Position numbers and translations under genes: made by a program. The notes under the pieces were generated by a model that worked only from the letters and a program-made list of their open reading frames with translations, was not told where the DNA came from and searched no databases. Positions 4,345 to 43,826 of a stretch of 64,000 nucleotides of DNA are shown piece by piece. The DNA is from Cyanidioschyzon merolae (taxonomy: Eukaryota): assembly GCA_000091205.1 (NCBI GenBank), contig AP006495.2; one strand, 5' to 3'. Position 1 is the first letter of the stretch. Every line of letters starts with the position of its first letter.

Positions 4345-4680
4345 CTAAATGCCTCTTATCGGTTTCAGTTTCTCCACGTTCACTTGGGCCTGGAGAAGCT
4401 GTCCCACAAAGTTGGTTCGCTTCAGCTCAGCGGGTCTCTTCTTCAGCACCGCAAAGCCCCATATATCAATAGCAGCATTGAGGTCTCGCTCCACGATCCC
4501 CAAGCCTTTATTGATGCTGCTTGGACCGACCAGTGCAAGTCGTCCTCGACCTCGTGCCCTCTGTGCCAATTCCTTCTTTATCAGGTCTTCGTGTTTTTCC
4601 ATCGCCGAAACGCCCTGCTGGCTCTTCTTAAAGTCGACGTTCTGAAACGTACATCCCAGCTTACATATCCCATGAATTTT
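4345..4680 (-). pseudogene. C-terminal relic of a TnpB/Fanzor-like RuvC nuclease (zinc-finger remnant plus RuvC-III motif)
   Basis: The 85-aa ORF carries GIVERDLNAAIDIW, the D-x-D/RDxNAAxNI RuvC-III signature. The same frame upstream translates ...HGICKLGCTFQNVDFKK (a Cys-finger remnant) and then hits stops. No RuvC-I/II remain. Confidence 0.55.
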
Positions 4681-5847
4681 TCATTTCCTCAAATTGAACG
4701 CACTTCTTCGCGCCTCTAGGCGACGACCTGCCCGGAGACAGACGGACCTGCGGATGGACGACGATATGTGCCCCGGTGCGTTACATTGCGGTGCACGCTT
4801 CAGCGATTCGCCATGTGCAGCGATCATCACGTTTCACGAAAGGAAACACTCCTTCGATGCGGCTCAACCATGGACTGTACGAAGCAATGGAAAGCAGCGC
4901 TACCCCGATAGAATCGGCAAAGCCCGGGCGCGACGGGAAAGAGTGCATTGGCGTATTGTCCTATATAAAAGGATTCCGCCAGGCGTCAGGGAGTGTGTGT
5001 CTTGAATGACTCGACGAGGTGGCTGGTGCTCTTGTATGAGCCTTCTGCAACAGCGAAACGGAGACCTCGAAATGAGTCCGCTGCAGCTGGAATAGATGAT
5101 GATTTCCGAACTCTCCTTGAGTTTGGTGTTAGATATGAAGGGCGCCCTGTATGCGGATGCCCATGTACGATCCGGCTGTTTCGCGCGAAGGAGGTCTCGC
5201 CGGCTGAGCAACCGAACAGAAGCCCCTACGCCGCATACCGGCGGAGACGTTCCAGGAACTCTGCCGTTGCGATTTATGCGGAAGACGGACATGAATGAAA
5301 CAGGACTCTTTTTTGCGACTGTGTCGCAATGTCTCCAGGGCCGCACGAACGAGATGTCGACAAACAAAGACGACCGTGGTGGCTGCTATAGTCGCTTTTG
5401 TTTTCCGCAGAGTGCCTGTTGGGGCGCTTTTCTACGATTGACCGAAAACAGGCTTTAAGAATACCTGTTTACGCCGCGGAGCGAATGCACCCTATTCCAG
5501 CGTTTCTCAACCATGTGAGTTCTGTGGTATGAGTGACCTGAAGAGAGAATGCAGTACACCTTGCACTGTTCAGAAACGATATATACCCTACAGGCAACTC
5601 ATCTATGATCTATAGAACGCATTATACAGTGACGTCGAAGACCTTCTGCAATACATCGCCTCCGGGGTGGAGCACAATGCAGTTGCAAGGTCATAAACGA
5701 ATCCACTCTGCGCGCAATGCGGAGGCGTTTCCGAAGTTGTATATGTAGCGACATAGTTATTCCGTTTTCGATCGTACCCTGTTTACGATTCTTTCCCGGA
5801 ACCGAAAATTGTCGGCCTGCTACGTCCTAGACGGGTGCCACAAGTAT

Positions 5848-6213
5848 ATGTCCGTAGACCAGTCCACAGCCGAGCCTGGTGAGAAAGCTAATTTAGAAGA
5901 GTGGGCGGCATCTCGTGTGGAGGAGTTGCGGAAAGTGGTCGCAAGCGGCCAGGCCGCTGGTGTGTTTACGGCCGCCGAAGTCCTTCCCGCGCTCGACGTT
6001 GACAGGGCAGTTCGCGAACTGGAGCGCGTGCATGCCCGAACTCTGCGTCTGGAACAGGCAAAACACGCCGTTAGGGCTCAACGTGAAAGTCTTGCACTTT
6101 TGAAAGCAGAGTTCGCCCTCGAAGATATAAGAAGGACGGTTGAAAACCTGCACGGAAAATCTGAGCGTTTACAACGGTGTTACCATTTTATCGAACAAGG
6201 CTGGCATAATTAG
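5848..6213 (+). CDS. small coiled-coil hypothetical protein (ORF from TTG at 5809; first ATG at 5848)
   Basis: 121-aa ORF with heptad-like, charged coiled-coil composition (EELRKVVASGQ...LRLEQAKHAVRAQRESLALLKAEFALEDIRRTVENL). No recognisable family. Confidence 0.3.
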   Translation: MSVDQSTAEPGEKANLEEWAASRVEELRKVVASGQAAGVFTAAEVLPALDVDRAVRELERVHARTLRLEQAKHAVRAQRESLALLKAEFALEDIRRTVENLHGKSERLQRCYHFIEQGWHN

Positions 6214-7353: not shown

Positions 7354-8125
7354 GGAGCGGTTTCGTTTCGGGGAACTTTCGCGTGCGCTATGTGAGTTCT
7401 AGGGCTCCTATGCTCGACTGAGGGTACGCTGACGGTATTTCGAGACGTCATGTATGCGAGTGCTCCTCAGGCGCAGCCGCGGTGGTATATATGCTGCAGC
7501 TTGGGTTGGCGCCGGCGCCCAGCTCAGCTAGGACGCCATGTTGGGAGAGATGCTGCGCCGAAGCGACACAGGATATGCTTTGTACAGTTTTGAGCAGAGG
7601 CAGAATGCCGTGTTGCAACAGACGCTTTACAGCAGCGAGGCGCAGTAGTCACCAGAAAACTGCGGCGCGCCCGCTGTTGTCTCTGGGCTGTGTTACCGGC
7701 CTGTGCGTTATCGCACCCGTGTGGTAACTGGCCCTTCCAAAGGGCACCTCGCGCTGGCCCTACTGAATCCAGACGTCCACGAGTGACTACGTATGCTCCA
7801 GAGAGACCAAGCTGTCCCGAAGAGATGGGATGGCGACGCTCGCTCACCGCGAACCTATCATCATATCACTCTGGTGCATGGAAGGCCTGCTGTCTCAGTG
7901 GCGTACTCCTTGACTGCGCACTTGGCCTGCTCAAGCCGTCGGATGCCTGTAAAACCTAATGGAATATTCGACGCTGTGCTTCGGAAAGGCAGCGCTGGCG
8001 TCCAATAGACCTCCGGCAGGGAGCTGGCGGTGCTGCTGATATTGATGCTGGTGTCGTTGTCTCGTGCAATAAACGCAGGCCGGGTAATGCTCTTTTTCTT
8101 GAACGAGCCATTTTCCGAGATACTT
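7354..8125. repeat. 772-bp dispersed direct repeat, copy 1 (99% identical to 27903..28674)
   Basis: Base-by-base comparison with copy 2 shows only about 8 substitutions over 772 bp and sharp boundaries (starts GGAGCGGTTTCGTTTCGG, ends CCGAGATACTT). It contains a TATA-like GGTGGTATATATGCTGCAGC. The ORFs inside it (e.g. 7482..7727) are composition artefacts repeated identically in copy 2. Confidence 0.9.
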
Positions 8126-8480
8126 ACCAGCAGTTTGAAATCCAGTTGCTCTCAAAATAGGTACAAGTGTCGAAACAGGTATCCGAGCAAGAGATGTTTT
8201 GTACGTGTTGAAGCTCATGCGGGAGATACTGATCATGACAATGTAAACGGCGTGTCTCACGAATAATCTGACAGTTTCCTTGCTGCTGTCAATTGATGTT
8301 CAAAAGAGCTTCGTTCTTCCTCAGCAAAAAAGTGTAGCCCTCAGGAAGCTCCTTCCAGACGTAACCACATAATAGCACTTCCCACAGCAGGACGATAAGT
8401 CCCCAGGGAAGAGAGTTGCAGAACGGTGCCTTTTTGGCGTACGCTCCGGGACGCCTGCAGCGTACGAAACGAGGCGCGAA

Positions 8481-11332: not shown

Positions 11333-11787
11333 GCTGTGGCCAACTGCGATTCAGTGCATTCGGTTCTGGAGATGGTTGCCTTCGTGCGTTAGTTCGGCAA
11401 ATTCTGTTCCCTGAATATCGAAGCGACTCTTTCTAGATGCCTCTAGAGCAATAATCCACAATGTCCGTCTTTGCCGCCGACTTTATTCATGAGGATTCCC
11501 CAGGTGTCTGACACTGAGCACCGTTCCAGAGACGCAAAGTGGCACCTCGGCTAGCGCGTCTCTCATGGATCCGCGAAGGCGCTGCCCTGCTGTTCGTCCA
11601 CATGATTTTTAGTATTAGATACGAACGAATTGGATGGTGCTTGCGCTTGAAGTCACTGTGCTGGTAGACGTTGCGCTGAAACCCGTGTGGTCCTAAAACG
11701 GAACGTGTTTACCAAGGTAACGCTGGCATGCGTCCAAACATTCGGGTCTAGAGCCATTTGCACCAACACCAGCATTTGCGACCTTTT

Positions 11788-13093
11788 TCACTGACTGCTT
11801 CTTCCTCCACTCTCTATAGCTCGCACCTCCGGTTTTGAACGCGCGAGTCTCCCTTGTTCCTCTACCTCTGTTGTAAGCAGTCGAAGGACGTTGATGGCAG
11901 CGTTCAAGTCTCGATTTGGCTGCACCCGGCTTCTGTCAGAGCATTTCATGCACAGACGGAAGTAGCGATCTAAGTTTCGGTTGCTATGTTCATCTCCTGT
12001 ATTTTCAGCCTCGATGTGCGATTCGCAGCAGTAACATTTGGCTATTGTTAGGTGTTCCCATATGTCCAACAAAACTCCTTTTCCGGGTGCAGCCCTGTCG
12101 GACGTGACGGTCCGCTTCATCGCTCGATATAATCTCATGACTGGTACAGAATGATCCCCCGGATGCCCTCCTTTGTTTCCACGCGGGTTGCTGTGCACGA
12201 GGATCGCGGATTTGTTCTGGGCAAAATTCTCAGTGAGTAGCCCTTCCTTTCTACGCAAACGGGCAAGCGGATCCATTCGAGAGAGGACTTTTTGGAATGA
12301 TATGTTGTCCGTGATGAATCGGGTATCGAAAGGAAAACCAATGCCGAAGTACAAGCTCAGAAATTTCGGTCCTTCTGTACACAGGTCATGTCAAATGGTC
12401 ACGTATTCTTGAAGTGAAGCGAAAGCTCCAATGACCGAAGTCCGCTTCCATGATTCTTTACCCTAAAAACAAAAAATACTCTAGCGCCGTGGACCAAATC
12501 ACATGAGTGGAACCATGCTATTGTGAAATGCCTTTTCTTTTTCGTCAAAGAGAATGGAAGATCTGTTCTTCGCATGGAATCGATAAATCTTACAGCTGAA
12601 TTCCAGGGATCTTCCGGCATCAGCAGCTGAACAGGTCCTCAGGGAACGACGTTCAGTTTTCCCTTCCTACTATTCAGGGGGCGCGTTTCAGTGTCCACGA
12701 TTTGCCTTGAAACGGAAAGAGCCATGCTTGAACAATTTGCGATTTGAGCATACCACGCGTGAGGAGAAGAAAAGATTGAAGGTTTTTACATATGCGTTGG
12801 AGGATGCTATCGCTTCTTTTACGAATTCTTGCCCGAGCGCTTCGCAACTCACATTGATAAAGGTGAGGTGACGAACTCGAGAGAGGAAGCGTCGAAGGAG
12901 CCACTTCGAAAAGATGACCTGGAATCCTCAGAGTACTTGTGAACCCGTGAGTCCTTAGTGCTGCACATCCAATGTCGAGGATGCACATCGAAAAAGTGCG
13001 GAAAAAATAAGATGGCATAAACAAAGCGAGCGATCTAATGTTCGATTTACCTCTGACACGGACATCGCCATGTGCTCGCTGCGCGAATCTCAA
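11788..13093 (-). pseudogene. frameshifted TnpB/Fanzor-like RuvC nuclease relic (about 400 codons across three frames)
   Basis: C-terminal piece: GVLLDIWEH (RuvC-II Glu region), TIAKCYCCESH...LCMKCSDRS (CxxC...CxxC zinc finger), NRDLNAAINVLRL (RuvC-III). Upstream, in another frame, CILDIGCAALRTHG resembles RuvC-I GIDxG. The three ORFs 11788..12354, 12399..12620 and 12674..13093 are in three different frames. Confidence 0.65.
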
Positions 13094-13324
13094 GCGACGT
13101 CTTACAAAGCTCGGAAGCTCTTATCTGTCCAGAACATTGCACTCACAGCGCTTCCTCACTATAGTCGACAGTGCCGCTGCTCGTTTAGCGAGAGAGCGAG
13201 AGGAAAATCCTCCCGAAAACATATCACTTCCTAATTTCGGTCTGAAGCAACCGTTTTCGGACTGGTCTGGCAGTTTTTCAAAGAACACGCCATACTTGTC
13301 CCCGGAAATAGTCCGTTGGCTGCC

Positions 13325-14350
13325 ATGTTTACGCTCCAGTACTTGAACCCAGTGCGCGTCAAAGCATCTGTGCGGCAGGGGGGTGTAGCGGTTTGCCGCA
13401 GGGACCAGAGACGCGTGCGGCTTGTGCCTGCGATACATGCGCAACTCTTGCGGAACTTGAAGTATGCGATTCCTGACGAGAAATTCAAACAGTTTGCTAC
13501 CCGCTCCGGCGGGGAGTTTATCGGCTTTGAGGCGTATTTCGATGCGACGACTGGAGAACCGCTCGAAGTACCAGAGCGTTTTGTTCCTCAGGAGTACCGC
13601 GACTGGCACGTTCGTGTGTTCGGTCTCGATGAAAACTACTCAGAGGCTATTGATGGGGCCACGCTTTTTGGCAAAAGGCAGCTTATAGACGTGAAGGTTG
13701 GTTGCCAAGAAGATGCTGTGAGTGCAGAGGCAAAGCATATCACTATAGATCTCAGCAGAACGGATATGCATGCAGTATTCCCATGTGGATGCTTCTCAGC
13801 ACGTCTATCAGCGACCTCAGCACACGATGAGAAAGTTTTGTTCTCTTTAATATTTCGCGATTTGAAAGAGCTGCGTCGCATCCAAATCGAATTCACCGCG
13901 TTTCCGCTGGAGTCGAAGCACCCGTTTGGTCGGGAGATTGTCGTTCGGCGCGAAATGTATGATCAGCCGTTTAACGGGGGGGTTCAGCTCATCGGTTGCG
14001 GCGGCAAAGTTGAGAGCTTCGTTACATTTGAACGCCGGCTAGGTTCACCCCGCGGCCTGCGTCGTCGCATTTGCTCGCTAGACGATCACGTGTCTATGGA
14101 AACGATTCGGGATCTTGCAGGAGATACTCGACAAGAATTTAGAGAGGTACACTTTCTGAGCTTGCCGGCAAACATCAGCGTGCGTCGTTATGCGACGCGC
14201 GATGCAAGTACACTCGTCTATGAGGCTGCTGCTATGATCAGTGATCTCTCGACTGGGCCTGGTCCAGCGCTAGCGCTGGCAAGGAACTACGATGCAAGCA
14301 CTGGCCAATACAAGGGCTCAGAGCTTTTCATCGAATTCTTTGAGAACTAA
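13325..14350 (+). CDS. hypothetical protein (341 aa), no family recognised
   Basis: Long clean ORF (first ATG at 13325; the track ORF starts TTG at 13316) with normal amino-acid composition. Its last 23 bp overlap the 3' end of the convergent P5A-ATPase gene. Confidence 0.55.
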   Translation: MFTLQYLNPVRVKASVRQGGVAVCRRDQRRVRLVPAIHAQLLRNLKYAIPDEKFKQFATRSGGEFIGFEAYFDATTGEPLEVPERFVPQEYRDWHVRVFGLDENYSEAIDGATLFGKRQLIDVKVGCQEDAVSAEAKHITIDLSRTDMHAVFPCGCFSARLSATSAHDEKVLFSLIFRDLKELRRIQIEFTAFPLESKHPFGREIVVRREMYDQPFNGGVQLIGCGGKVESFVTFERRLGSPRGLRRRICSLDDHVSMETIRDLAGDTRQEFREVHFLSLPANISVRRYATRDASTLVYEAAAMISDLSTGPGPALALARNYDASTGQYKGSELFIEFFEN

Positions 14351-18379: not shown

Positions 18380-20500
18380 TTATGTGGAAGCCCCTGAGGG
18401 ATCGTTCGAAACGACGTTGCTGATTGGGAAACGAAAGTCCTCGCTTACCCCCATACTCCACATAAACTTTTCCTGTAGCGCGCGAGGGAATATTCGCTCA
18501 ATAGGAACCTCATGTCTTTTGCACCAAGCAACTGTTATTCGCGGATCTAAATAGTTGATCTTAGAGGTGCTCAACGACACCGTAGCGAGCGAATCCCTCG
18601 TTTTCAGGTCAGCCTCTAGGCGCCTGATTTTTTCCTGTGTTTGCGCTATTCCTCGTGTGATAGACGCGAGCCCCATGTTCACTACCTGTTTTTCTTTCGG
18701 TCGCTTTTCGGCCTCCTCGCGAATGCGCTTTCGCTCAGCGAGGGAGCAGTCCTCGGGAATCTCAACTACTGGCCGTCGCCAGCGTGTTACTTGTGCGCGG
18801 CTGTCTGGAGATGCCTGAGCCTTTCCTCGAGCCATTTTGAGCGCCTCAAGATACGCTCTGCTCTCCTCTAGCTTATCGCGCAGTCTTTCAAGCATTAACG
18901 AATGAGTCTTTGGAAGGGATCGCTGATGGTTACATAATACAGCTACATCTTTGTTCGCCTCATTGTAGAACAGAAGGCGCGAATGAATATCCGGTCCAGG
19001 GGTTTTCACGCTGTGCAAAAGCTTATCAAGGGTGTAAGATGCATTGTAGGTGCGAAAAACTTTCGCAGATAGGCCCGGCATTAGGCTTTTCAAATAGTCA
19101 TTAAGTTCCTCGACTTTCAGTTCGTCGAATACATTATCTGATACTCGTTTTCCTTTCAAGAACTCTCGCAGGCGATGAAAAACTAGCGCTTCGACTCGCA
19201 CTCTGTTAAAGTATCGCATCGAATCCTTGCCGAGAAAGTCGAGCTGCACTATATTAGGCTCTTGAAGGGTTATGTGTTCTACCCGCAGGGAGCAGCAACC
19301 AACAGTGTCCGCTTCGTCTTCTCCTTTCTCGTTCCCGACTCGGAGTGCAAGCTTATCAATAAGATACAGTGCGACGGATCTCTGCTGCGTGTGCCTATCA
19401 GCAGATTCTAATCCTTTCGTGTACTCATTGCGTATCTTCGTGATATGCTTGCTCAGCTGCTGCGCCTTCTCAAATTTTTCTTGATCGCTCATCGCCTTGA
19501 AGTGCGAAGACGCACTCAGCCAGACGTACTTGTACTCATCGGAGATTGGATCTCGCCAGCAAGCCAGCCACGTGACCCTCTGGTTGTGCACGATGGATCC
19601 CCAGTCATGGCCTTTAAATGGACACGGCGGAATAGGTGCGTCACGACCAAGATTCAGTGTGACATCCTCTGGGAATATGCGACGTTTGACTCGGCCCATT
19701 AGCGGATGGTCACCGCGCCCCAGGAAGAGACCCGGAGGCTCGACACGATAATTGGCCACTTTCTCCTTGCGTCCATCAACGATTGCAACCGTGTAATGCG
19801 CAACTCTTTGCGCTTCCGCTTCTCGTAACTCTTTCCGTTTGCTTGGAGGCATGCTTTGTTTTCGTTCTTTCAGCTCGTCGAGATACTCCCGGATACGGCT
19901 GAAGTCACAGTGTTCGAGTTTCACGATGCGCTTCCGTAAATCAACGGGCAAGGTCTTCCGAAAGTCGTCAAAAAAGTTTTTCCGAAATGTTTCCTTTTCT
20001 AAATAAACAGTTCCCAACTTCGACGCATAAAAGGTGGCCACTTCTTCGGCCTCGGGCGGGAGCGCTATTTCGCAGCCATCGTAGAGTAGAGGCCGTCCGT
20101 GCGGTTCATATTCCGGAGGGAATAAGACTCCGTTATGTTCGAGGCTGCACCACTTGATCGATTCATCTTCCGCTCTATGTTTAGTACTTGTTGCCTGCAA
20201 CTTTTTCGCCTTGCGGTGCTTTTCGGCTTTCATTCGTTCGCATTTCCTTTTCGGCGCTTTTCGACATGGTTCGACTTTGCCCTTCCTTCTACTGCACTCC
20301 TTCTTTCTTTCCGTACCAATAAGTAGAGCTAGAGGCAGTTCATCTTCCGAAAGTGCAGCTGAGGAAGACTTCTTGGCAACCTGTATCGACGGTGCGCCGA
20401 AGCCACCTTGTCTGGCAACTGAAACAACTCTCGGCACCGATTCTCCAGAGTTCCCAAGGAGTTCAGAAAGCGGTATCTCGTCAGGGTCCTGCTGATGCAT
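18380..20500 (-). CDS. TOP1: DNA topoisomerase I, eukaryotic type IB
   Basis: Core and catalytic region with active-site Tyr in [28 protein letters not shown] (human: [26 protein letters not shown]). Lys/Glu-rich N-terminal domain; [15 protein letters not shown] core start. First ATG at 20500 (the track ORF starts GTG at 20644). Confidence 0.93.
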   Translation of the reverse strand: [706 protein letters not shown]

Positions 20501-20650
20501 AAACAGAGCACTCACTGCCAGCAACGAACACTTTAAAAGACAAACGCTGCAGTCTGCAGTGTACACTAGTGACGAGAAACCCGCCCCAGACAAGAACTCT
20601 ACACCTGATGTGCAGACGCCTCCCAGTCTTTTCGGACCGGCCACCCATTG

Positions 20651-21910
20651 CTACTTCAAATTTTTCTCAGATAGTTCCACTTTGAGGAATTCTCTTACAA
20701 AATTCTTTCGTGTCCACTTTGGATGTCTTCTTTCCATCACCGCACAACTGATGTTAATCGGGGCGTTCAAGTCTGGGTTCACAAACTTCACACGATTCCT
20801 CCCGTTGGTTCTACTCACTAATGCGAGTAGCCCTCGAACTTTCGCCATCCTTTCCATTCGCTCTTCTATAAGCTCTCCGTACTTTTTTATATCCTCAGGG
20901 CTCCGCTGGCACTTTTCCATCTCGACTTTCTGAAGTGTAGACCCCTGCTCATGGTGCGTATAGGACGTTCGGAACTCATCTATCGGTATCGTAACGAAAC
21001 GCCTTGTGCACTCCTTGTACGTTGTTGTTGACGGAGCTGGCGAAGTCCCTTTTTTCGACACCCAGCGCCCTGCTCCGTATGCTACTACGAGCCTCTGACT
21101 TTCATCCTCCTTCAGGGCGCTTAACTAATTGAAAAAGTTCGCGAACACATGCTGCTTCCCGCAGTATAGATTCATTCGCAGACAGGCCCATCGAAACTTT
21201 GTATACTCTTTCCACAGCGCCTCGCAACGGGCAACGAGAACCCCCATGAACTCCCGAAAAGCTTTCAAGTCCGCTCCGCGGCTGGTCACCTCGCTCAAAA
21301 CTTCCAGGTGATACTTCATTCCTGCATTCCAAGTCTCGAATTTCTTACTTGTATTCATGATTCCCGATTCTCGATAGTATCTTGCTCTCGAGATTCTCAA
21401 AAGACGCATATCTTTCTGATGCAAGTTACCGTGAATGCCATCTTCCGCACGCTTGGATACAGCGATGGTTATGATATTCGTGTTCCCTGGGTCTGCGCCA
21501 ACGATAAAGACGTCATCCTGCACTTTCCGCGTTCCAAGATCCTCCCCCTTCTTTTCTACATCCTTCATCATGGGCGATTCCGAACGCATGATAGGACGAT
21601 ACGCCCTCAAGCGCTTGTAGTGTACACACATGGATATTCCATCGGTTTCGATCATCCCCGTGAATATTTTTTGCTCGCTCGTTTTGAGACGTTTCAAACC
21701 GAAGATATTCTTTCAATGAAATATCCGGTTTTCGCCCGTAAACTCGTTCTTGCTGTCATCGAACTCCCGACTGATCATTTCATGATGCTGTAAAGGACTC
21801 TGGAGTCGATTGTTACAAAATGCCACTTGATGTTGCACACCGGAACGACGTTGAAACAGTTCCCTTGAAGCGCAGCCTCCCATTCTACGACACTGCATTT
21901 GCTTCCACAC
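20651..21910 (-). pseudogene. TnpB/Fanzor-like RuvC nuclease relic, one reading frame with two in-frame stops and a degraded zinc finger
   Basis: ORFs 21713..21910, 21125..21697 and 20651..21061 are all in the same frame, separated by single stops (TAG at 21125-21127). RuvC-I is [18 protein letters not shown]. RuvC-II/TSK is IPIDEFRTSYTHH. Degenerate RuvC-III is NPDLNAPINI. The Zn-finger cysteines are lost. Confidence 0.65.
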
Positions 21911-24072
21911 CCTGCTCCATATCGGACTTGCGTTCCATTTCTCGATGCAGGAACACGAAATAGCGCATGAAGGGGGAAAAATATCTTCCTCTCATCTTTT
22001 TTCATGTCTGATACTTTTTTGCTGGATTGACAAGTCCCCAAATGGCATGGTGCTCTTGAATATCCTCACGGATTACAGAACCTCCATTCCTGCTCCTTCA
22101 GAAATCGTTCGAAGTCCATGATCATGTGGTTCTTCGGGTCCGTGAGGTTCTTGGTCGCCCCGTAGAAGCAAATGCGCGAGTCACCCTATGTTGAACGCCA
22201 TTCAAGCATTCAAAAGGGGCGATTTTCATGCAGGACGAGCACTCGAGAGTTTTCCTCGGCATTTCCCTGTACCAAGCATCAGGTGGCGAATGAAGCTCAC
22301 CCTGTAAAATCCTCCGAAGTCTCGCTGTGTTGATGTCCTTGACTTAGTGGTATGTCTCTCTCACAATATGCATCAGTTTTAAAGAAGCGTAAGGAACACT
22401 ACTGGAGCACGACTCGACACGGTTTCTGATGAACACTTGCATCTGTAGCTTCTGCGGACCCTTTTTATGTCCAAGAAGACTGGCTTTCGCAACGATCTCA
22501 TCCTTGCGTCGCCTTTCGTGTAGCTTTTGGCGTCCGGCCTCCAGTTTCTGCTTCTTACTCTTCACTTGCTGCTCTGGTCTCGGCACTGTTTTCCGTTTCT
22601 TGTCGAACTCGGCGGCTCCAGGTCCCCGGGATCCGCGACTTGCATCTCCATATCATTTCTTAGATTATTTATTTCTTCAAATGAACATATTTCGAACATA
22701 TCTGCGATAAACCGTGAAAAAGCATTTGATTACATTTACCTAGGGGTAGAACAGAATTGAGTCGATAGCGATGAATGCGTTCCAGGCACGTCAATGAAGC
22801 ACACCGTATCAAACTTATTTACTCTGCACAAGGCGCATGAATATCGTTCGCTTCTCACTCACTAACTCAAAGTTCGTTTGGACCCCGTATGCGATCCAAT
22901 CGTTTCCGCGTCTCCTCAGACTACGCAAGAAAAGGCGACAGCGTCCTGTCGTGGAGGTTCTTGGCACTCCGCCAGACTTCCGATGGAAGCCGGATATCTA
23001 CCAGCAGCGTATCGGAGTGGGATTTAGAAAGGTTTCCCACTCGAATACAACACTTAACGAACTGCATTTTATTTCAGAGACGCTCTGATGAAGCATGCCG
23101 TTATCCAAAATTGTCGGAGCGCTCCCACAAACGTCGGTGTGCAGATCGCGGAAACGTGACATACATCCAGTCGCTTTGCAGTGAAAGAAAACGGAGCTTG
23201 CTAGAGGTGCACATGGTAAGCCACGCTCGAGAGAGCATAGCAACGCACCGTCATGCCTCAATATACAAACCATGCTTTTATTGCTATATGCAACTCTGGC
23301 ACTCGCTGCTGTCTCGCCCGAGCCGCAGCAACTGCTGGCTGGCACCAATCTTGAGCGTGAATCTCCTGGTGGAACGTCATGCGGACTGGACGCAGCCGTC
23401 CAGCCAGTGTCCTTTTTACCGAAGCAATATCGGGTTTTGGCTGCGAAGTCTCCGCAGATCGACTGTCATATGCTCCTCATACAAAGACGAGGGAGCCTGC
23501 CTTTGGGCTTTCGCGATCGTCGCCCCGCTCCTCCAGAATGTACTTTGGAGCAGCTTTCGCCAGCTTGCACGGCCTGCTAGACCAAGACGGACGAAGAGTT
23601 CTACGTCCGTAGTTCGGGCCCGTACCATATGAACTGTGGCCTCGAACAGACGCCATTAAAAGAAGAAAAAGACCATTCGGGTCTCCATGCGATATCACAT
23701 ACGTCGCTGGGTCGGTGCAGTCTCTTTTTCAGAAGGGAATGCTGGTTTGCGGTTGACGATAAACCATAGCGTCTTTTCGAGAACCGAGGTTTCTCTCATT
23801 GATACAGGCTTCGTTGCTGCGTTCGAGAGCAGCTCATAGGTAAATTGATCCTCGCTTGGAGAAAATTTTCCAAACGAAATCCGTCCGCGAACAGCTTGCG
23901 AGCGATCTGTGATGTACTTTGCTATTCACTCCCCAAAATCTGCAATTCAGAAAAGAGATACAAGCTTGGCTTACATACGACTCAATGCCAACCATCTCCG
24001 CAATCAATCAGCTATCGCGATATCCGCGAAACAAACCAATAGACGCTACCGCCATTCAACTTGCATGCAGTC

Positions 24073-27902: not shown

Positions 27903-28674
27903 GGAGCGGTTTCGTTTCGGGGAACTTTCGCGTGCGCTATGTGAGTTCTAGGGCTCCTATGCTCGACTGAGGGTGCGCTGACGGTATTTCGAGACGTCAT
28001 GTATGCGAGTGCTCCTCAGGCGCAGCCGCGGTGGTATATATGCTGCAGCTTGGGTTGGCGCCGGCGCCCAGCTCAGCTAGGACGCCATGTTGGGAGAGAT
28101 GCTGCGCCGAAGCGACACAGGATATGCTTTGTACAGTTTTGAGCAGAGGCAGAATGCCGTGTTGCAACAGACGCTTTACAGCAGCGAGGCGCAGTAGTCA
28201 CCAGAAAACTGCGGCGCGCCCGCTGTTGTCTCTGGGCTGTGTTACCGGCCTGTGCGTTATCGCACCCGTGTGGTAACTGGCCCTTCCAAAGGGCACCTCG
28301 CGCTGGCCCTAATGAATCCAGACGTCCACGAGCGACTACGTATGCTTCAGAGAGACCAAGCTGTCCCGAAGAGATGGGATGGCGACGCTCGCTCCCCGCG
28401 AACCTATCATCATATCACTCTGGTGCATGGAAGGCCTGCTGTCTCAGTGGCGTACTCCTTGACTGCGCACTTGGCCTGCTCAAGCCGTCGGATGCCTGTA
28501 AAACCTAATGGAATATTCGACGCTGTGCTTTGGAAAGGCAGCGCTGGCGTCCAATAGACCTCCGGCAGGGAGCTGGCGGTGCTGCTGATATTGATGCTGG
28601 TGTCGTTGTCTCGTGCAATAAACGCAGGTCAGGTAATGCTCTTTTTCTTGAACGAGCCATTTTCCGAGATACTT
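27903..28674. repeat. 772-bp dispersed direct repeat, copy 2 (99% identical to 7354..8125)
   Basis: See copy 1. Constant offset of 20549 bp with no indels; substitutions only (e.g. CTTCGG vs CTTTGG, GGCCGGG vs GGTCAGG). Confidence 0.9.
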
Positions 28675-30180: not shown

Positions 30181-30232
30181 CCGCCGCACACGCTTCCGAA
30201 CAACGGTTGAACTTCCGAGGCTCCACACCGAA

Positions 30233-32449: not shown

Positions 32450-33439
32450 CGCTTGTCAATCGTCTAACGAGCGGAACGCCTAGGAAGAGCTAAATGTGCA
32501 GTGCACACAGGAATCCACCTTCAGAAATCGGGTGCTTTGCACCGGCTACAGTACTGTAAGCAATGTTCCTGTACATGCGATCATTAACGCCTGAGTCGAA
32601 TCCCTATAAACCGCGTCAAAAACAAAGACTTGGCAAGATACGCTCGTCCAGAATTGATCCGCATCGCCGGTTGGGAAGCATTTGTTTCGGAATGCTAGGC
32701 ATAGCCCAGTTTCTTTGAAGCACTGCACTTTAGGGCGGAGCGCTATCGAGAGAATAGATACATTTCGAGAGAAAGGTTCAAGAGTTTCTCGTTACCGGCT
32801 TGGGAAGCTACAGGTAAGTGCGTGGTGAGTAAGAGCTGAATCATGCGTCAAAGATCCATCTGGTTGTTTGCTTTCATGAACAGATGCTCCAGTCAGCGCT
32901 CTGTTTCTTCATAGAACCGTGAAACCCCTGAGCAAACGAGACCAGCACAAATAAGTGTTCGATGCAAGGAGGGCAGCTTGATGCATCTTGATCGTCCTGA
33001 TAGCGCCTTTTGACTAAACCATTTGTGCTGAAGCCATCCCGGCGCGCCAGATGAATTGTGCTCGAGTTCATTATCATTCTTCCTGGATCAGAGAGTTGTG
33101 GGTGGAAACCACCCCTGTAGGCTGCGGCTCAGCGGTGTAGTGGTAACTCGAGACCCTAGCGAGCTTACAGCTGTTGTTTATCAACCAAAGTTTCGCTAAG
33201 GGGGTGCATCACTGGGGCTATCAAGTAGCTAACTGGAGAAAGGCGAAGATCGGGTAAGTTATTTCCGCAAAAAAATTCTACACCCGTGTCGTAGTGAAAC
33301 GGAGCACCGAGTTGCTCGTAATGTTCGAGCAATTCGAGATTGTACGAACTTTTATAAACGCTCGAATTCGACATTCGAAATGCAGCAATTAGGGCTTACG
33401 GATTCAAACCTCTTTTAGGAATGTTCTCTCATCTTTAGA

Positions 33440-34650
33440 GAGCAACTACCACAATCCTTTAACGCTGGTATTCGTTACGTAGATGTCTTCGAGATGATTC
33501 GCGACGCCCTCTAACAATGGTACGTAAACTAACCGATACCATTGCTTAAATCGTAAGTACATGCCTCCACTCTTCACCTTTCCTTACATGTACGATGTTG
33601 TTATCTCGCATACTTCAGTTTTCCGATCTTTCTATTCCAAGCCAACTTGTTGGCTCAACGGTACGTCTATCTGGATTCAATGCGAAATCTATCAACGTTG
33701 TCGTTTGACAGCATTTTCACATGCTCAAGCCAAAAGTTTACTGAACGTACATATGAAGCAATATTTTCTATTCGAGAGATGAATCATCCTCTCTGTCCAG
33801 CCATTGACGAAATACCGCTCGAATGCAGCAGCATGATACCTCTTACGGGTATAACTCCAAGGGCTCCCATCTCTTCAGATTGCTTGGAAGCGTTTCGGAC
33901 CTTGACTTCACTCATTGCATAGATTCGTTTCCAGTGAAGAGTGCATCATCGCTTTGCAGTCCGGGAGCTTCGATGACCTGGTGTATCTCAAAAAATGTCC
34001 TCCATTCGGGTTTGCAATTCGGTACTCGTTTCACCATGCGCAACAATGTGTTACGCAAAATCTCCCATCGAATTTTTTTCAGATAACAAAACGATTACAT
34101 TGACCATGGATCCCAGAATTCGGAATGGATAATGGCTTTCGGGAAAGCGTCCATCATAAAGCACCCACAGTTAAGTTCCATTACTCATAATTCTTCTATG
34201 ATATACTGGTCGTTTCGAATGTTATATAGTGCACGAGTGCCTGTTTTGAGCACACGCCATAACGCTTATGCCACTGAAGCAGATGCTACACGTAGACAGA
34301 ACGGCTTTGGCATACCAGTGAGGGCGTCGGCTTGAGGCGTGGTTCATCGGACACGGAGTCGGAGTACTTAATCATCCTGGGAGCCTGCGATAGCGCGAAG
34401 CGATATACTAGGCGTCCACTGCGACCAGGGCGACGCCCAGGCGCAGAATCCTTCTCCTAGTCCCAGAATGAATTGCGGTGCGGACGAGTTGCACAGGTCT
34501 CGCCACAGCACCTGCCACTGGAGGAAACATGAAGCACTAGCCCGGCAGACTCGTCCGGCTAGCGGACCTTCCGCCTAGAAGGTAAACTTTTGAAGATACG
34601 TAAACTTCCCGCTTTTGAATGATTACTATCAAGGTCGAAAGAAACTGTTA
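33440..34650. repeat. ~1.3-kb diverged dispersed element, copy A (5' module with TCGCGACGCCCTC, 3' module with conserved GCGGACGAGTTGC...CAGACTCGTCC stem)
   Basis: Alignable by eye along its length to 48490..49800 at roughly 75-80% identity. Shared blocks: CTGGTATTC, GGGAAAGCGTCCA, TACTGGTCGTTTCGAATG/TACCGGTCGTTTCGTAGG, CTGGGAGCCTGC, GCGAAGCGATAT, CCCGGCAGACTCGTCC, CCGCCTAGRAGGTAAAC. Confidence 0.7.
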
Positions 34651-35670
34651 TCGAGTTGCTAGCTAGTGGTTAGTTTCTGTTCTTTCATCCTCCAGCGAAT
34701 GGAACAGCATGCGGTTTCGTGCACAGCGGACGATGCTCACGTCGTGGGGATTGATCAGCAGAGGACCCATAGTCGTAGTTCAAGATACTGGGAGGGAAAA
34801 CGGAGAAGGACTTCAAGGGTAGCATTATATACTTGTCAAAGACGTGTACCATGCGAAGAAGAAAGTGTTTGCGCGAATAGTGCGGCGCTCTGATGGGGAA
34901 GTGCGGTGCGAGTTGGAGAACACCTAACCATAAAAAAGTCTCACCACCGGGAGGGGCACGGCGAGGCTGTATGCAAAGAGAACGAAGATAGAGCGTGAGA
35001 GTTAAGTAAGGACACCCGCTTGTGCTTGAAATGCGGGGAACGCAACGAGAAGCAGCGAAACCAGGACGTTGATGCGACCATGTTCAACCTTTGACTGCTG
35101 AAACGGAGCTGAGGGGACAGAATAGAACTCCATGTTTTAAAGCCGGAGAACGGGGGCAGTAGAATAGGAAGCGTTTGCTAAGAAAGCCAGCAAAGTATGA
35201 GGTTGGATTACTTCGGAAAGAGGCCCCGATACATGTACGCAGCCCGTGCTACGTTCGCGTACCCGTTCCATGTTATTCCCACGCAGGTATAGATAGCGGT
35301 GTCCAAGAGGAGTCCAGCATAGCTACACTATTTGAATATTCTGATGTTGTAGCGTGCATGGTGTACAATTTACAGGACTGTTTCATCAATGGATTTCAGT
35401 CAGTCGCATACAGCTTCAGATACGCAGTTTCTGGCCGCGGATGAACAGCCGCTCGGAAGCGCTTCACAAATGAAAGCGCAGAAGTCTCAAAGGAACAGGA
35501 TAATCTTTCAACAGCCGTAACTTCCACGCGAGGGGCCGTCTTTTCACATTGGATTAGTCCTTGAATGAGGAGGGGCTTCGGAAGCGCAACCTGCTTCCGC
35601 CTTGTGCAGTGACACATGCACACACGAAGACTACACCGATTGCATCGGCCGAAAGGGAGATCTTTCCCTA

Positions 35671-38316: not shown

Positions 38317-39059
38317 ACAACACAGCAAACAAAGCGTGTACGTTTACGAAAACGGTCGTTGAAATACAGAACGCAGGCAGAAAGATTGATGTCATTCGGC
38401 CGCAACGCCAGAGTTTTCCGGATCTATCTCGACACCGTAAAACTTGCAGACCTCACCGTAGGCTCCCCGAGAGCTGCATACTCGTCAGAGACAGCTCCGA
38501 GGACATGTAGACATAAGCCTGGTGTATAAGTCCACCTGCCGTAGCGCTTATTTTAAGTGATTTGAGAGCTTCACTCTCGTTTGGCAAGGCTTCGTTGACA
38601 AGTTAGCATAAACCTTTTGCTGACCACGACGTTTCAGAGCGAAAGCCCGGGCGGCTACAGGGTTGCAGCCTCTTTAGTGAATGCTTCGCTGACTTTTTGT
38701 CATAAAGCTCTTGATTTGAGCTGCTTTTCTGAGGACGCGGTTGAAGTAGGCAGCGGTTAAGCAGCAGCAGCAGCCCAGATGGGCCTTTACATCTAACTTA
38801 TGCTTCGAGCACGCTTTTTGAGTGCGTTATTCTAGCCACCAGCGGCGTTCTTCCGCAAAGTTTCCGCAAAACGAAGAAAATTTAGAGCTGCTGTTACTCG
38901 ACCAAGTGTTACCTCTCTTTTAAGCTACGATATTTGCGGCTTTCAGTGCACAGTGCACACTACATCAGTCTCAGACTGAAATGAAACACTGAACTGAACG
39001 CTCTGATCCTGCGTATCGATTTTCAGAACTTTGTTTAGGTGTCCAAACTCCATTTTCGA

Positions 39060-39450
39060 ATTGCGGCAGTAAGTGCTTTTGTATTCACATGTAGTTTCAC
39101 AGTTCTCTGTCCTATTTTCGACTTTACTCGGTCGAGTCCTTGCTGTCGAAATTTGTTAGGTCACTGGTATCAAGAAGAGTCGCGACGCCCTCGAACACCT
39201 GGTTCGTAACGCGATCAGTATAGGTATTCAATTCTCACATATAGGCCTCGACTGTTCTTCTTTCCTTCTAGCATACGTAAAAGTCTTAATCGTAATTTTT
39301 TTTCGATCCTTCTTCTCCATGTCGACTCGTGAGCTCGGCAACTCTCGCTGCTTGATTTAAAAGTAAAAGTACTTTAGACCGTCGGATTAAGATTGTTCAC
39401 AAACTCGTGCCTTACGCTCACAGAACTCGGCTTGCCAGTTGATCATTTCC
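39060..39450. repeat. partial copy (5' module) of the ~1.3-kb dispersed element
   Basis: Contains CACTGGTATCAAGAAGAGTCGCGACGCCCTCGAACACCTGGTTCGTAA and CCTCGACTGTTCTTCTTTCCTTCTAGCATACG, matching copy A at 33469..33600. A further partial copy is at about 90..300 (TCGCGACGCCCTC at 126..138). Confidence 0.55.
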
Positions 39451-41790
39451 ATTCGAAAGGAAATCTTCCGCATTCTGTGGCCATCAGTCATACGCTATTC
39501 CACAGTACCACAATAACTCGTAAACGATGTGCTCCCAGAGGCTCCCTTTTCCCCTGTTTGCAAGGAAACGGGCAATGTCTTCGGGCTTTCACCATCGTAG
39601 AGATCGCTTCCAGTAGAGTGCGTCTCCGCATTTTCACGACGCGTGCGTACATCGACGGAAATTGCTCGACTTGTTCTGAAGCTTGGTTTTCCTTCCGGTG
39701 CATGTTGCATCATTGACTGCACCGCGTTCTACAGATTCTTTGTCGAATGGAACAGAACGCACAGGTGTGTGCAGCGGGCAGAGTAGGCGCCGAAGAGATC
39801 GCCCAGAACATGCCCCACGGCCGATAGGTCCGACATTACGGCCAAATATATTGGAGTGCATTGAGTGGAGCCTTCCGAGCCCGTCACAGTCATGTTCCGA
39901 GAGATGGTGCGATCTTTCAGACGCCATATGAGGGCGCCCGGAAGGGACTGCTTGATTGGTATATTCGAACAGCTAACCACAGTCAAGCATCACAGCAGCG
40001 AAAGGCGCACCGAGATCGTATGCGAAGGAGATGGAAACAGCACGCGAGGCGTCGAACGCGACTTCCGCATGCTCATGAAATGGGCAGAAAACACCATGAA
40101 GCGCTGGACTCTGGTATTCAACTCCGCCACTAGCATCCCTGAACTGCTACCGTGGAAGCTGAAGTGACTGGAGAAACCGTATCATTTGAAGCATGAGCAA
40201 AAATAGAGGAAAAGGAAGCACTCAAAGTTAATGTCTGCAAAGTGGGCGTCGATGACGGTGGGAAGACACCCAAACTTAAGACGCACGCCCATGTTAGGGG
40301 AACGCTGCCATTCAATCCGGAAACCGGTGTAAATGATATATTCGCCGTCAATTGAAGAAGACATATCATGAATGGCGCAAAACACTCTTTAGACAGTTTT
40401 CCGGATCTTGGCGCGCAATCCGCGTTTGTGACACAGAACAATAAATCGAAATTGCGAGATTAAATTGTTCAGATAATGGCAGTGAAATTCGGATGCCTAA
40501 TTTTAATTTTGAGATAGTTGCGCTCATTATCGAATACATTTTATGTTATTCACTGAATGAAGCGCATCTTCTTGACATCAAAGTGCAATTTATGCAGCGT
40601 TTTCAAGATGACCTTGCGGCGAAGTGTGCAACAAAGGGCACAGGGCTTTTAAATCATTCAGTAGAGATTTCCTTCTACGTTCGGTTTTAAAAGCGTCGTA
40701 GTCGGTTCAGTGTAGAAATCTTCAGCTGCGCTGCATATTATCGAACAAGTCCTTTCTAAGCTTCATTACATCTTCAGATAGCATCAGAGCGATCTTTCTT
40801 ACTTACAACATCTGCGCCTCGGAACTTTTCCCGGTTGGTGACGAAACAAACAAGTGAGTTTCCGAGTTTGCCTGATATTCACTTCGGCGGGAGACGGCTC
40901 TTCATTTACTTTTGGCTGTATAGGCAGATATCGCTGTCTTGGAAGTATCCTTTCCAAGATCGTGCACCGAACACTTCGACAGCTGAAGTTCGATTCAAGA
41001 ATATCTTTGAAAGGGGTGAAACATGTATTTCCCTAGCGCACTGATCGTATTTTGCCGGACTTCCATGCCCACGCTTATACGATCCCCTTGTCAAGAGAGC
41101 GTTGATCCTGTGAAGTGGTCCGAAGAGATAGCACTTGCCGTTTTACCCACAGGCGAATTTGCTAGGAAATTTCACATCTTCGGTCCACAGAAAATATCAA
41201 ACTCGCCTAAGGCTGCTTTCACCTTTCGGGACCACCTCGCTCTATCCGAGAGATATTGCACTCAGGAGATATTGGTCGCCATAAAACGTTGCTTCGAGTA
41301 CTGAAAGTCCCGTCATCCACGCTTTTCTAATCTTTGATTGAACGACATTTTTTTCTTTCTGTCTCTTATCGAAACGCAGAAAAACTGCTGTTTACAATGG
41401 TCACCTATGCAGGTTGGAGCTTTTTGGGAGCTTCTCTCTGTCTCAATACTGAGCCCTCCACGAAAGCTCTGCGTTTCAAACGGTCCTGGAGCTGTGCGGT
41501 GCCGTGCGCGAATCGTAGGCTCAAGCCGACGCCCTCTGTGGAACGGCAACGCGGTTCTGTCTCCGTTCAGCGACCGCACCGGCGCTACGGCGCAATTGCG
41601 GTCGCTCTCGGCAGGTTCGGCACACGATAGGACGTATCAAACGACCAGAATATCCGAGAAGAAGTATAGGAAATGTAAATTGGAGGTAGGGGTTTGATGG
41701 ATACTTCACCGCGCACTGAAAAAACACACAAAAAAAGTAAGCAAAGAAAAAGCGCACAGTCGGAGAATTCTTGCCTACCTAAACATTTTG

Positions 41791-42879
41791 TCACTTTAAA
41801 AATCTGCGCGAATCGCACGGCACCTTCGCACGGTCTAAAATTGGATGTATCGACTTTCGCCAGAGTGCAGGGAATAGCAACAAAATGATCATTGTTGGAT
41901 AGCCTGCAGGGAGTTGTGGACTTTCTACTGTTGAAACGAGTAAATGATACGGCCTATCGGCATGTCGATGATGGTCCGCATGACGCTGCAATTTGAACAA
42001 GATATAATTTGTTAGGCGATGTGAGGAATTCCAACTGTGACAGTTGGAAACAGGCTCATAAATCTTCTCACCATTCGGAAGGACGTTAATGACAGCTCTC
42101 TCGAGCCCGTAATGCTCAATGTAGTTGACCATTTCAAGAAGGGTTATAGCCGTGAAACAATGGAGCAAGAAAAGGCAACATGCTCGGAGGCCGTAGAGGA
42201 AAAATATTGTCAGAAACCAAAGAACAGAGCAAGCGAAATATCTAAGTATCCGATTCTCAACGCAGAAAGTTTGAAAGCCTCGCTTCGCTAATCTCTCTCT
42301 TTCTATTTTCCAAGCGCTGCGAAAGGATCCGACGACTGTACGGGGGAAGAACGCATAGAATGATTCGCCATAGCGGGCCGTTGCGGGATCCTCTGGCGTT
42401 GCAACTCGCCTGTGGTGTCCGTAAAGATGCTCAATATAAAAATGTCCATAACACACAGAAACCAAGATTGCCTTCCCAAGCGCTACTTCAGCAGCGTTTC
42501 GTTTGTGAAAAAGTTCGTGGCTCACATTCACCCCTTGCGCAGCCAAAAGGCCCGCAGTTAGACCAAGGCCAATAAAAGATGAAACGCTCAGATCCACTCC
42601 TTCGCTTGCTAGCCTTGCTGCCCAGAAGAGAAAGGACCATTGCACGGCCGGCCATACGTACAGCACAACCCTGTACGCCAACTTATGGCGTCCACTATGT
42701 AGTTCGGCATCACACGGGTTCTCTTCGTCGAGGCCAAGAACAGCATCTAAAGCCGGTATGAGCACAAAAGCGAGGAATATCGACGCGAACGCTGTTGACC
42801 ACTTCTTGAAAATGAAACTCGTAAAAGAAACAAGGGGCACAATGTAAGCAACACTATACACTAAGGCTGTTGCTGTCAT
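41791..42879 (-). CDS. integral-membrane non-haem di-iron hydroxylase of the AlkB alkane-1-monooxygenase type (FA_desaturase superfamily)
   Basis: All four AlkB signature boxes are present: HELFHK (Hist-1), EHLYGHHRRVATPEDP (Hist-2), NYIEHYGLER (HYG motif), LQRHADHHRHADRPYH (Hist-3). Multiple N-terminal TM helices. 362 aa starting at ATG. Confidence 0.8.
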   Translation of the reverse strand: MTATALVYSVAYIVPLVSFTSFIFKKWSTAFASIFLAFVLIPALDAVLGLDEENPCDAELHSGRHKLAYRVVLYVWPAVQWSFLFWAARLASEGVDLSVSSFIGLGLTAGLLAAQGVNVSHELFHKRNAAEVALGKAILVSVCYGHFYIEHLYGHHRRVATPEDPATARYGESFYAFFPRTVVGSFRSAWKIERERLAKRGFQTFCVENRILRYFACSVLWFLTIFFLYGLRACCLFLLHCFTAITLLEMVNYIEHYGLERAVINVLPNGEKIYEPVSNCHSWNSSHRLTNYILFKLQRHADHHRHADRPYHLLVSTVESPQLPAGYPTMIILLLFPALWRKSIHPILDRAKVPCDSRRFLK

Positions 42880-43514
42880 AGGAACGTCTGCCGAAAACTA
42901 CGCTTACAGCGGCGAACGCTTCGGCGTCCGTGACGTGTACAAATCGGTTCTGACGCTTTATTTTCTTTCATCTCAATTGTATTCCACCGCAGCAGGGTAA
43001 TGCATGTTTTTTCGTGGTTTATGGCAGATGTGTTCAATGTACTTTCATTTGGAGAGAAAAAATCAAAGTGTAAGTTATGGTCACGGAAGTCGGTGATCCT
43101 GGCGGACCGCCATCACCAGCTGCCGAAATGAAAACGAAAAATCTTCTTCTTACTCGCTACACAGCGGAGAAGAGCAAGTGGGGAGGCAGAAGAAGAGGAG
43201 ATAGATAAGAAAACTGTTTGCCCCACGTGACGAAAACGAGACTGAAGTAGTGCAGAGGGTGCTATTGCTAGGAATTCGTTAGAAGGTGAGCTCCACCTTC
43301 GTCAATGGACGCAAGGAGTCCTTGAACCGAGTCTTCAACGCTTCCATAAATATGCGACAGCGCTCGGTGCTGAATACGAGACCCGCGTAGCTGGTGCGAG
43401 CCATCTTTGTGGAGGCAGCCGCTCACGGTCGAATTTTACGAGAAGAAGCTGGAACCGATAGTAGGGAGCCAGCAAAAAGGCCGGGAGGCGGCCGTGATTG
43501 GCTATTATTTTACC

Positions 43515-43826
43515 CTACGACGTTGTGACGCTCTTTCGCTCCGTGAGCACTTGCAGGAACTTCAGCCAAGAGCCGCGATTCACACAGCCCGTAGCCACCC
43601 ACAAACCCTCTCTCAGAATAGAAAAGGAATGGGTCCCCGAACTTGGGGCGTAAAGCTCAAGTTTGGGGATTTCCAATACTATTAACATCATCTTTTGCTG
43701 GCTTTTTCGGCGACTGCTCCTCTTTCCTACGCTCTCCATTGTAAGCAGTCGAACGATGTTGAGAGCAGCGTAGAGTGCATACATGGCCTTTAGCGGCTGT
43801 TGTTCACGCATTTTATGTATGAGCAA
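43515..43826 (-). pseudogene. fourth TnpB/Fanzor-like RuvC-III relic, same family as 11788..13093
   Basis: Encodes ...AMYALYAALNIVRLLTMES. The nucleotide block TTGTAAGCAGTCGAACGATGTTGAGAGCAGCGT matches 11875..11910 (TTGTAAGCAGTCGAAGGACGTTGATGGCAGCGT, which encodes RDLNAAINVLRLLT), and the flanks CTTTTTC..GACTGCT..CCTC also match. Confidence 0.55.

Follow-up and report, generated by a model that had tools for sequence, protein, structure and literature searches.

Relics of two Fanzor1-bearing DNA-transposon families in a 64-kb stretch of Cyanidioschyzon merolae chromosome 13

Content of the window

The DNA analysed here (the window) is a stretch of 64,000 nucleotides from chromosome 13 of the red alga Cyanidioschyzon merolae 10D (contig AP006495.2), in which a first-pass annotation, made from the letters alone, had recognised four decayed loci resembling the RNA-guided nucleases TnpB and Fanzor (loci 1 to 4, in order of position). 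All four were found to hold real TnpB/Fanzor-derived sequence, but the count was too low; the window carries four copies of the transposon CMe-1A (family A), three of the related element TE-N2_CMe and seven of a second family, designated family B. The summed relics amount to approximately 15.9 kb, or approximately 25% of the window and approximately 44% of its non-coding DNA. Very probably these relics are the dead remains of two old families of DNA transposons which carried Fanzor1-type sequence, and none of them is functional now.

The host was identified from two window proteins which exactly matched the C. merolae 10D entries XP_005537133.1 and BAM81102.1. The window has a G+C content of approximately 51%, with long unbroken open reading frames (ORFs) on both strands, and ORFs of at least 200 amino acids (aa) cover approximately 44% of it. 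Housekeeping products encoded among these include RRN3, a P5A-ATPase, topoisomerase I, a HECT ligase and a class II aminoacyl-tRNA synthetase, while a Mg-chelatase D subunit indicates a photosynthetic host. Assignment of the window to an organism other than a red alga was rejected. Introns are found in 0.5% of C. merolae genes (PMC1955436). The earlier description of the loci as Fanzor remnants in a eukaryotic, intron-poor algal context was thus borne out, both by the host and by the Fanzor1 profile matches described below.

Comparison DNA was taken from hot-spring metagenomes, a scan of which confirmed at least 397 family-A stretches; the best 80 of these loci, partly redundant, gave 491 kb. 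Hot-spring contigs (JGI Ga0078972, Ga0080006, Ga0504778 and Ga0504779) were 99.5-100% identical to window positions 14073-35758 (21.7 kb) and, because such syntenic contigs came from two of the same datasets as well as from others, the 80 loci were taken to be of the same species. The relic insertions in this part of the window were also present in the syntenic contigs, so that a comparison of strains for empty insertion sites or for constraint on the relics was uninformative at this level of identity.

Copies of the published Fanzor1 transposon CMe-1A

Judged by their sequence, loci 1 and 3 are copies of CMe-1A, a Fanzor1 transposon of C. merolae known from the literature. It was listed by Bao and Jurka (2013; Mobile DNA 4:12) as one Fanzor1 family for this alga and described from approximately 150 copies, approximately 80% identical to a consensus of approximately 3 kb that lacks inverted repeats, with target duplications undetermined; its 5' 635 bp are equivalent to another element, TE-N2_CMe, and some of the copies remain intact (PMC3627910). 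The CMe-1 protein (734 aa) and the 3169-bp CMe-1A consensus were taken from the supplement of that paper and used as references. The window copies were 59-83% identical to the published consensus and share its protein motifs, including VNRDFNAAINI, and the published relationship between TE-N2_CMe and the CMe-1A 5' end is also visible in the window. Nothing essential differs from the published element, except that all window copies are broken whereas some published copies are intact.

Locus 1 is a 3' fragment of CMe-1A (4319-4680, minus strand) which corresponds to CMe-1 residues 612-727 and contains a single in-frame stop. Positions 4319-4661 aligned with consensus positions 2740-3085 at 68% identity (blastn), a tblastn search with CMe-1 gave 47% identity, and a profile hidden Markov model (HMM) built from close homologues matched positions 4348-4680 (E 3e-20). 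Locus 3 lies in a near full-length copy (20527-22760, minus strand) which lacks only the 5' end (approximately 800 bp) and covers CMe-1 residues 10-734; the stretch 20532-22760 aligned with consensus positions 800-3164 at 73-83% identity (blastn). Family HMM matches at this locus gave E values of 6e-97 and 1e-83 and spanned 20484-22185, which is nearly full length. This copy has no fewer than four frame changes and no fewer than seven in-frame stops (tblastn with CMe-1), two of the stops falling within approximately 400-430 codons in the minus-strand frame through 20651-21910. Its catalytic D/E/D residues can still be read in GADPG, IDEFRTS and NPDLNA, and the motifs at locus 3, including NPDLNAPINI, correspond to the RuvC-I, RuvC-II and RuvC-III blocks of the CMe-1 family.

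Two further CMe-1A copies, both on the plus strand, had been missed by the first-pass annotation. One (42959-43490) bears an internal deletion which joins consensus positions 786-969 to 2840-3079; its two parts, 42959-43141 and 43255-43490, were 71% and 66% identical to the consensus respectively (blastn), and HMM matches were obtained at 43283-43387 and 43374-43682 (plus strand). The other (55260-56879) is very decayed, covers CMe-1 residues roughly 142-689 with many stops, and was recognised from weak collinear HMM matches with two profiles together with tblastn support; positions 56427-56641 were 59% identical to consensus positions 2532-2746 (blastn). The three TE-N2_CMe copies, all placed by blastn, lie at 34082-34685 (plus strand; consensus 2-636, 80% identity), inside a family-B copy, at 49233-49868 (plus strand; consensus 8-651, 74% identity) and, as a fragment, at 41520-41711 (minus strand; consensus 60-255, 77% identity). 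A self-comparison of the window also matched the copy at 49233-49868 to positions 34088-34590.

No intact nuclease ORF was present among the window copies, every one of which is broken by stops and frameshifts, as the first-pass annotation had stated, and no window copy is a candidate enzyme. Intact paralogues elsewhere, for which it had proposed a search, do exist for CMe-1A, of which intact copies are published (PMC3627910) and for which one metagenome locus (L011) carries an apparently intact CMe-1 frame of 778 codons, the sole near full-length frame among the best 80 family-A loci; for family B none was found. A 3.2-kb transcribed repeat was reported in 253 copies from C. merolae by Nozaki et al. 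(2007), with a truncated ORF resembling WSV486 of white spot syndrome virus (PMC1955436), and this virus is among those listed with a Fanzor1 by Bao and Jurka (PMC3627910). From the viral link, the size and the copy number, the repeat and CMe-1A appear to be one element.

The assignment of family A to Fanzor1 was examined at the protein level. The reconstructed locus-3 protein (352 aa) retrieved 233 relatives, the best of them 69-75% identical, and an exhaustive search of representative proteins with family A returned 1446 clusters. Residues D314, E486 and D555 were invariant across an alignment of 49 diverse family-A members. Pfam and NCBIfam assigned no family to the intact family-A homologues, for which the precomputed match to PF26935 was weak and to a domain of unknown function (DUF8286), and a PDB search with a profile restricted to close homologues gave no relevant match. 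Success came only after the profile was diversified, when three solved Fanzor1 enzymes were matched, those of Parasitella parasitica (9cf0, E 5.8e-20), Spizellomyces punctatus (8gkh, E 1.5e-11) and Guillardia theta (9cer, E 6e-6). The matches ran from REC to RuvC with the catalytic D/E/D residues aligned, and family A is therefore Fanzor1. By homology to these solved enzymes, CMe-1 is predicted to be an RNA-guided RuvC endonuclease.

The mariner-type family B

Loci 2 and 4 belong to one family of elements of approximately 1.4 kb which is unrelated to the CMe-1A transposon. The two loci (at 11788 and 43515) had been grouped together previously, and their nucleotide identity of 56% over approximately 1.2 kb agrees with this; the notion that all four loci form one family must be abandoned, the family-A HMM giving no match at locus 2 and loci 2 and 4 forming a separate family of mariner/IS630 type. 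Seven collinear copies with 56-64% nucleotide identity were detected in the window by tblastx, tblastn and blastn and placed by nhmmer. These are B1 (4-1299, plus strand), the 5' end of which is cut by the window edge; B2 (11679-13063, minus strand), which is locus 2; B3 (33282-35290, plus strand), which is split by a nested TE-N2_CMe into 33282-34077 and 34689-35290; B4 (38964-40331, plus strand); B5 (43606-44927, minus strand); and B6 (46877-48355) and B7 (60600-62103), both on the minus strand and both of a subtype with approximately 100 nt extra at the deletion junction described below. The protein fragment P0270 matches B7. B3 must be older than the TE-N2_CMe insertion, because the latter sits inside it. 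Locus 4, previously delimited as 43515-43826, proved to be relic coding sequence only in its upstream part (YAALNIVRLL and a basic tail), which is the 3' end of B5 with the motif LYAALNIVRLL; the rest is not. A further 19 family-B matches were found in the 491 kb of other C. merolae DNA, and a majority consensus was built, first from 7 copies and then from 16.

The two halves of the 16-copy consensus were found to encode parts of two different proteins. The 5' half matched Pfam DDE_3 with 38.5 bits (cut-off 28.6; E 1.3e-9; profile positions 3-102 of 146) and the NCBIfam IS630 transposase NF033545 (E 3.2e-19; positions 21-238 of 299), with weak matches to HTH_33, HTH_Tnp_Tc3_2 and HTH_32, and LFVAIDETAF and CFIMDNIAFHK represent the first two catalytic Asp motifs of the transposase. 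A BLASTP comparison of this part with the mariner transposase of PUl-1 was not significant, and the homology rests on the profile matches. The 3' part reads ..VIVGYGTGRGNGGGHRGEPSVLVKGMYRAMKR..VVDIWEHLTTAKCHRCEG..FRLCMKCVDN..QRNRDLNAAINILRLL; it matched Pfam Cas12f1-like_TNB with 32.9 bits (cut-off 26.3), and the tail aligned with the Fanzor1 profile in hhalign at a probability of 94.9% (E 5e-8). A C4 zinc finger (CHRC...CMKC) is present in the consensus, and of the RuvC triad the E and the last D are kept and nothing else. The Fanzor tail starts approximately 30 codons past the second transposase Asp and the third catalytic residue is absent; since the catalytic triad of the transposase is incomplete, family B is non-autonomous.

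This organisation can be followed in B2, which consists of a 5' inverted repeat, the transposase helix-turn-helix (CILDIGCAAL), a partial DDE domain, a Fanzor tail (DIWEH..CYCC..CMKC..NRDLNAAINVL) and a 3' inverted repeat. The motifs DIWEH..KCYCC..CMKC..NRDLNAAINVL at locus 2 form a true RuvC-II, zinc-finger and RuvC-III block. Several motif claims of the first-pass annotation can be judged in this light. A RuvC-I block had been proposed at two loci, of which that at locus 3 (GADPG) stands, while CILDIGCAAL at locus 2 lies in the helix-turn-helix of an IS630/mariner-type transposase. Both RuvC-II blocks were correctly called, IDEFRTS of locus 3 being found in the CMe-1 family and DIWEH..KCYCC of locus 2 passing the Cas12f1-like_TNB cut-off as consensus, and the CxxC...CxxC finger is real in family B and missing from family A.

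The ends of the family-B consensus are inverted repeats (TACATCCGTGTCAGATTAAAATGGAAC versus TACACCCATGTCAGAATAAAATGGAAC) which are identical at 24 of 27 positions. Terminal inverted repeats, for which a search had been suggested, are present in family B; CMe-1A is published as lacking them (PMC3627910). Of 14 copies, 9 have the dinucleotide TA directly after the 3' end, and TA precedes the 5' end in 3 of approximately 9 readable copies. In the alignments, the copies which cross the fusion point share one place of junction between transposase and Fanzor tail, B6 and B7 keeping approximately 100 nt more. On account of its terminal repeats, its TA flanks and its truncated transposase fused to a Fanzor tail, family B is interpreted as a non-autonomous deletion derivative of Tc1/mariner type. 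An IS607-type organisation with a serine recombinase partner, for which a test had also been suggested, was rejected; Pfam detected no resolvase or recombinase domain when the window's 19 ORFs of 200 aa or more were scanned, and the partner in family B is a DDE transposase of IS630/Tc1-mariner type.

Family B resembles PUl-1 and PGv-1, mariner/Tc1 elements with a Fanzor1 (PMC3627910), in that a transposase of IS630/mariner type lies 5' and, in the same orientation, the C-terminal part of a Fanzor1 with its C4 finger lies 3', and also in its TA flanks and its inverted repeats of approximately 25 bp. Unlike them, it is a deleted fusion of 1.4 kb without the third transposase residue or the N-terminal two-thirds of Fanzor, and it is multi-copy and ancient. 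The module of RuvC-II, zinc ribbon and RuvC-III (TNB) is common to family B, prokaryotic TnpB (IS200/IS605 and IS607) and Cas12f, but the window elements stand in a eukaryotic context, and neither a Y1 nor a serine recombinase was found alongside them. No published description of family B in C. merolae was found in the literature.

Origin of the relics and alternative readings

The observations can be accommodated by the following course of events. CMe-1A, an element of approximately 3.2 kb with an unclassified type of transposition and a single ORF for the 734-aa Fanzor1, would have been helped to persist by RNA-guided cleavage if the enzyme acts as its homologues do; its copies were inserted between genes, in many cases a short way 5' of one, and have since decayed to approximately 60-83% identity with the consensus. 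The parent of family B was probably a Tc1/mariner (IS630-like) transposon in which a DDE transposase gene preceded a captured gene for Fanzor1. A deletion within it would then have fused the transposase (helix-turn-helix and first two Asp) to the last third of Fanzor (RuvC-II Glu, CxxC..CxxC and RuvC-III Asp), and the resulting 1.4-kb element probably multiplied by means of its 27-bp inverted repeats, inserting at TA sites with transposase supplied in trans, before decaying in its turn. The earlier suggestion of a family that was once highly active is supported.

A number of results weigh against this interpretation. The CxxC..CxxC zinc finger was present in none of the 291 CMe-1-clade proteins retrieved, and CMe-1 has just HH..C..C where the finger would sit, unlike the Parasitella and Spizellomyces enzymes, which have it between RuvC-II and RuvC-III in the aligned stretches. 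An AlphaFold2 model on a shallow alignment was unusable (pLDDT, the predicted local distance difference test, 34). Single-sequence PDB searches with the family-B tail matched no solved structure, and the NCBIfam TnpB model scored family B at 18.8 bits against a cut-off of 100. An intact family-B parent (full mariner plus Fanzor) was not found, the deletion origin being deduced from the consensus alone; protein searches for intact relatives returned short decayed fragments only, among them the locus-2 ORF itself and others which match window copies. To these are added two tests of the CMe-1A 3' end, for which the last 160 nt of 35 distinct copies were aligned. RNAalifold returned essentially no consensus structure (5 pairs, -1.9 kcal/mol), and covariation was no better than in column shuffles, 87 of 500 of which scored as high, although neutrally decaying copies make this test weak.

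Other properties of the 3' end were also recorded. Two CMe-1A subfamilies can be distinguished by their terminal hairpin (last 25 nt; CGTTTTTCTTTTGAAAGGCG versus CGTCGTTCGACTTTCGAACGGCG). The 160-nt consensus 3' ends of the two fold alike, with z-scores of -2.7 and -4.0, while the terminal hairpins differ in sequence, and in the shared helices 84.5% of cells pair, compared to 35-54% when the partners are slid. Rfam and tRNA scans gave no match. The 3' end has a moderately stable fold, beyond which no support for a conserved omega-RNA structure was found, and the conserved 3' omega-RNA scaffold envisaged in the first-pass annotation could not be demonstrated.

Three other explanations of the loci were considered. 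Were the motif matches short chance similarities in non-coding DNA without family homology, it would be understandable that Pfam was almost empty on single ORF fragments (one match, E 0.0024, under the cut-off) and that the profile of close homologues found no solved relative. This explanation is refuted by the family HMM matches at locus 3 (E 6e-97 and 1e-83) and locus 1 (E 3e-20), by nucleotide identities of 68-83% to the published CMe-1A consensus, by the three Fanzor1 structures matched with the diversified profile and by the family-B consensus, which exceeds the Pfam cut-offs for two domains; the likelihood that chance accounts for the loci is negligible. It is no more credible that the interrupted ORFs still yield working proteins by way of introns or recoding. 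What might suggest this is the frame at locus 3 between 21826 and 20654, with its two in-frame stops only over 400 codons, but several frameshifts and more stops lie upstream of that frame, the remaining copies are much more damaged, the host is nearly intronless (0.5% of genes; PMC1955436) and the differences between copies are as neutral decay predicts. A functional gene interrupted by introns was accordingly rejected.

The remaining alternative concerns loci 2 and 4, which had been read as remnants of a whole nuclease and which on that account would be independently decayed, complete Fanzor/TnpB genes with a RuvC-I of their own rather than copies of a chimera that was already deleted. The C-terminal block of family B is indeed a true RuvC-II, zinc-finger and RuvC-III block, and CILDIGCAAL, which resembles a hydrophobic-D-x-G motif, lies upstream of it. 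However, the upstream 235 consensus residues match IS630/DDE_3 transposases and not the N-terminal part or RuvC-I of Fanzor, and CILDIGCAAL lies approximately 340 residues before the RuvC-II Glu, too distant for a RuvC-I when the spacing in CMe-1 is approximately 175. In addition, just 1.4 kb separates the family-B inverted repeats, and the junction is identical in the aligned copies which cross the fusion point. Complete genes at loci 2 and 4 are for these reasons very improbable, and the amplified form is taken to have carried only the C-terminal third of Fanzor on a truncated DDE transposase.

Insertion sites and implications

The positions of CMe-1A 3' ends relative to host genes were compared at 33 unique 3' junctions. 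At 30 of these an ORF of at least 200 aa lay nearby, co-oriented with the element in 22 cases and opposed in 8 (P = 0.016), and the median distance from junction to first ATG was 66 bp, a figure which may be too short, as the first in-frame ATG may precede the true start. In the window, 27 bp separate the 3' end of the copy at 20527-22760 from the ATG (20500) of the topoisomerase I gene downstream, the start chosen by gene callers in other strains, and this copy is orthologous across all sampled strains. It is conceivable, though rather unlikely, that CMe-1A 3' ends were directed towards host genes at their 5' side, or were kept there, where they would supply a promoter or 5' untranslated region (UTR), an idea compatible with the origin proposed above. 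The co-orientation and short distances, the fixed insertion upstream of topoisomerase I and the reported transcription of the repeats (PMC1955436) speak for it. On the other side, many DNA transposons favour gene 5' ends without exaptation, constraint is not measurable in strains which are 99.5-100% identical, and just one of the four CMe-1A copies in the window abuts a start codon.

Two observations were made at the termini themselves. A TTYGNTG-like motif is conserved just past the published end of the CMe-1A consensus, and the true 3' end, or a target preference, may extend approximately 7-10 nt further. The TE-N2_CMe copy nested in B3 (34030-34740 with its surroundings) has CTCCCATCGAAT on one side and CTCCAGCGAAT on the other, at a place where a single such site is present in other family-B copies; this looks like a target-site duplication of approximately 11 bp, in a single case.

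Some features of the window fall outside the two families. A direct repeat of 772 bp, 99% identical and with sharp edges, occurs at 7354-8125 and 27903-28674, spaced by 20.5 kb; it contains no long ORF, was not matched in Rfam or tRNA scans and did not recur in the 491 kb of other C. merolae loci, and the copy at 27903-28674 was also found in related strains. Four Pfam-negative ORFs of 223-501 aa lie on the plus strand (13316-14350, 22889-23632, 50067-51572 and 60963-61634). The ORF at 22889-23632 is a called gene of 247 aa in related strains, and that at 60963-61634, antisense within B7, is probably spurious.

For nuclease discovery there is little gain, as CMe-1A, including its few intact copies, was published from C. 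merolae in 2013 and the window copies are dead; the half of the finding which concerns family A is already published. The missing canonical zinc finger of the CMe-1 clade is relevant when Fanzor1 candidates are picked for enzyme testing. Leads were also obtained on points of CMe-1A biology left unsettled by the original authors, namely the possible target duplication of approximately 11 bp, the terminal hairpins and the preference for gene 5' ends; the co-oriented 3' ends, tens of bases from host starts, hint at targeted insertion or at donation of a promoter or 5'-UTR.

Family B adds a second Fanzor-bearing element, of mariner type, and shows a nuclease fragment carried passively in a non-autonomous transposon. 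It is put forward tentatively, at somewhat less than even odds, that family B is an undescribed and abundant Tc1/mariner-Fanzor chimera (hundreds of copies by rough extrapolation from the local density), that the published transposon figure is an underestimate if the window is typical, and that CMe-1A 3' ends lie near start codons. The C. merolae genome paper gives transposons as 0.7% of the genome plus one repeat of 5%, with just eight class II elements, and transposon debris in the intergenic DNA of this alga appears to be far commoner than the genome papers state. If the window is typical, the figure of 0.7% (plus 5% repeat) would be a large underestimate, and much of the intergenic DNA of C. 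merolae would be the ancient debris of Fanzor-bearing transposons.

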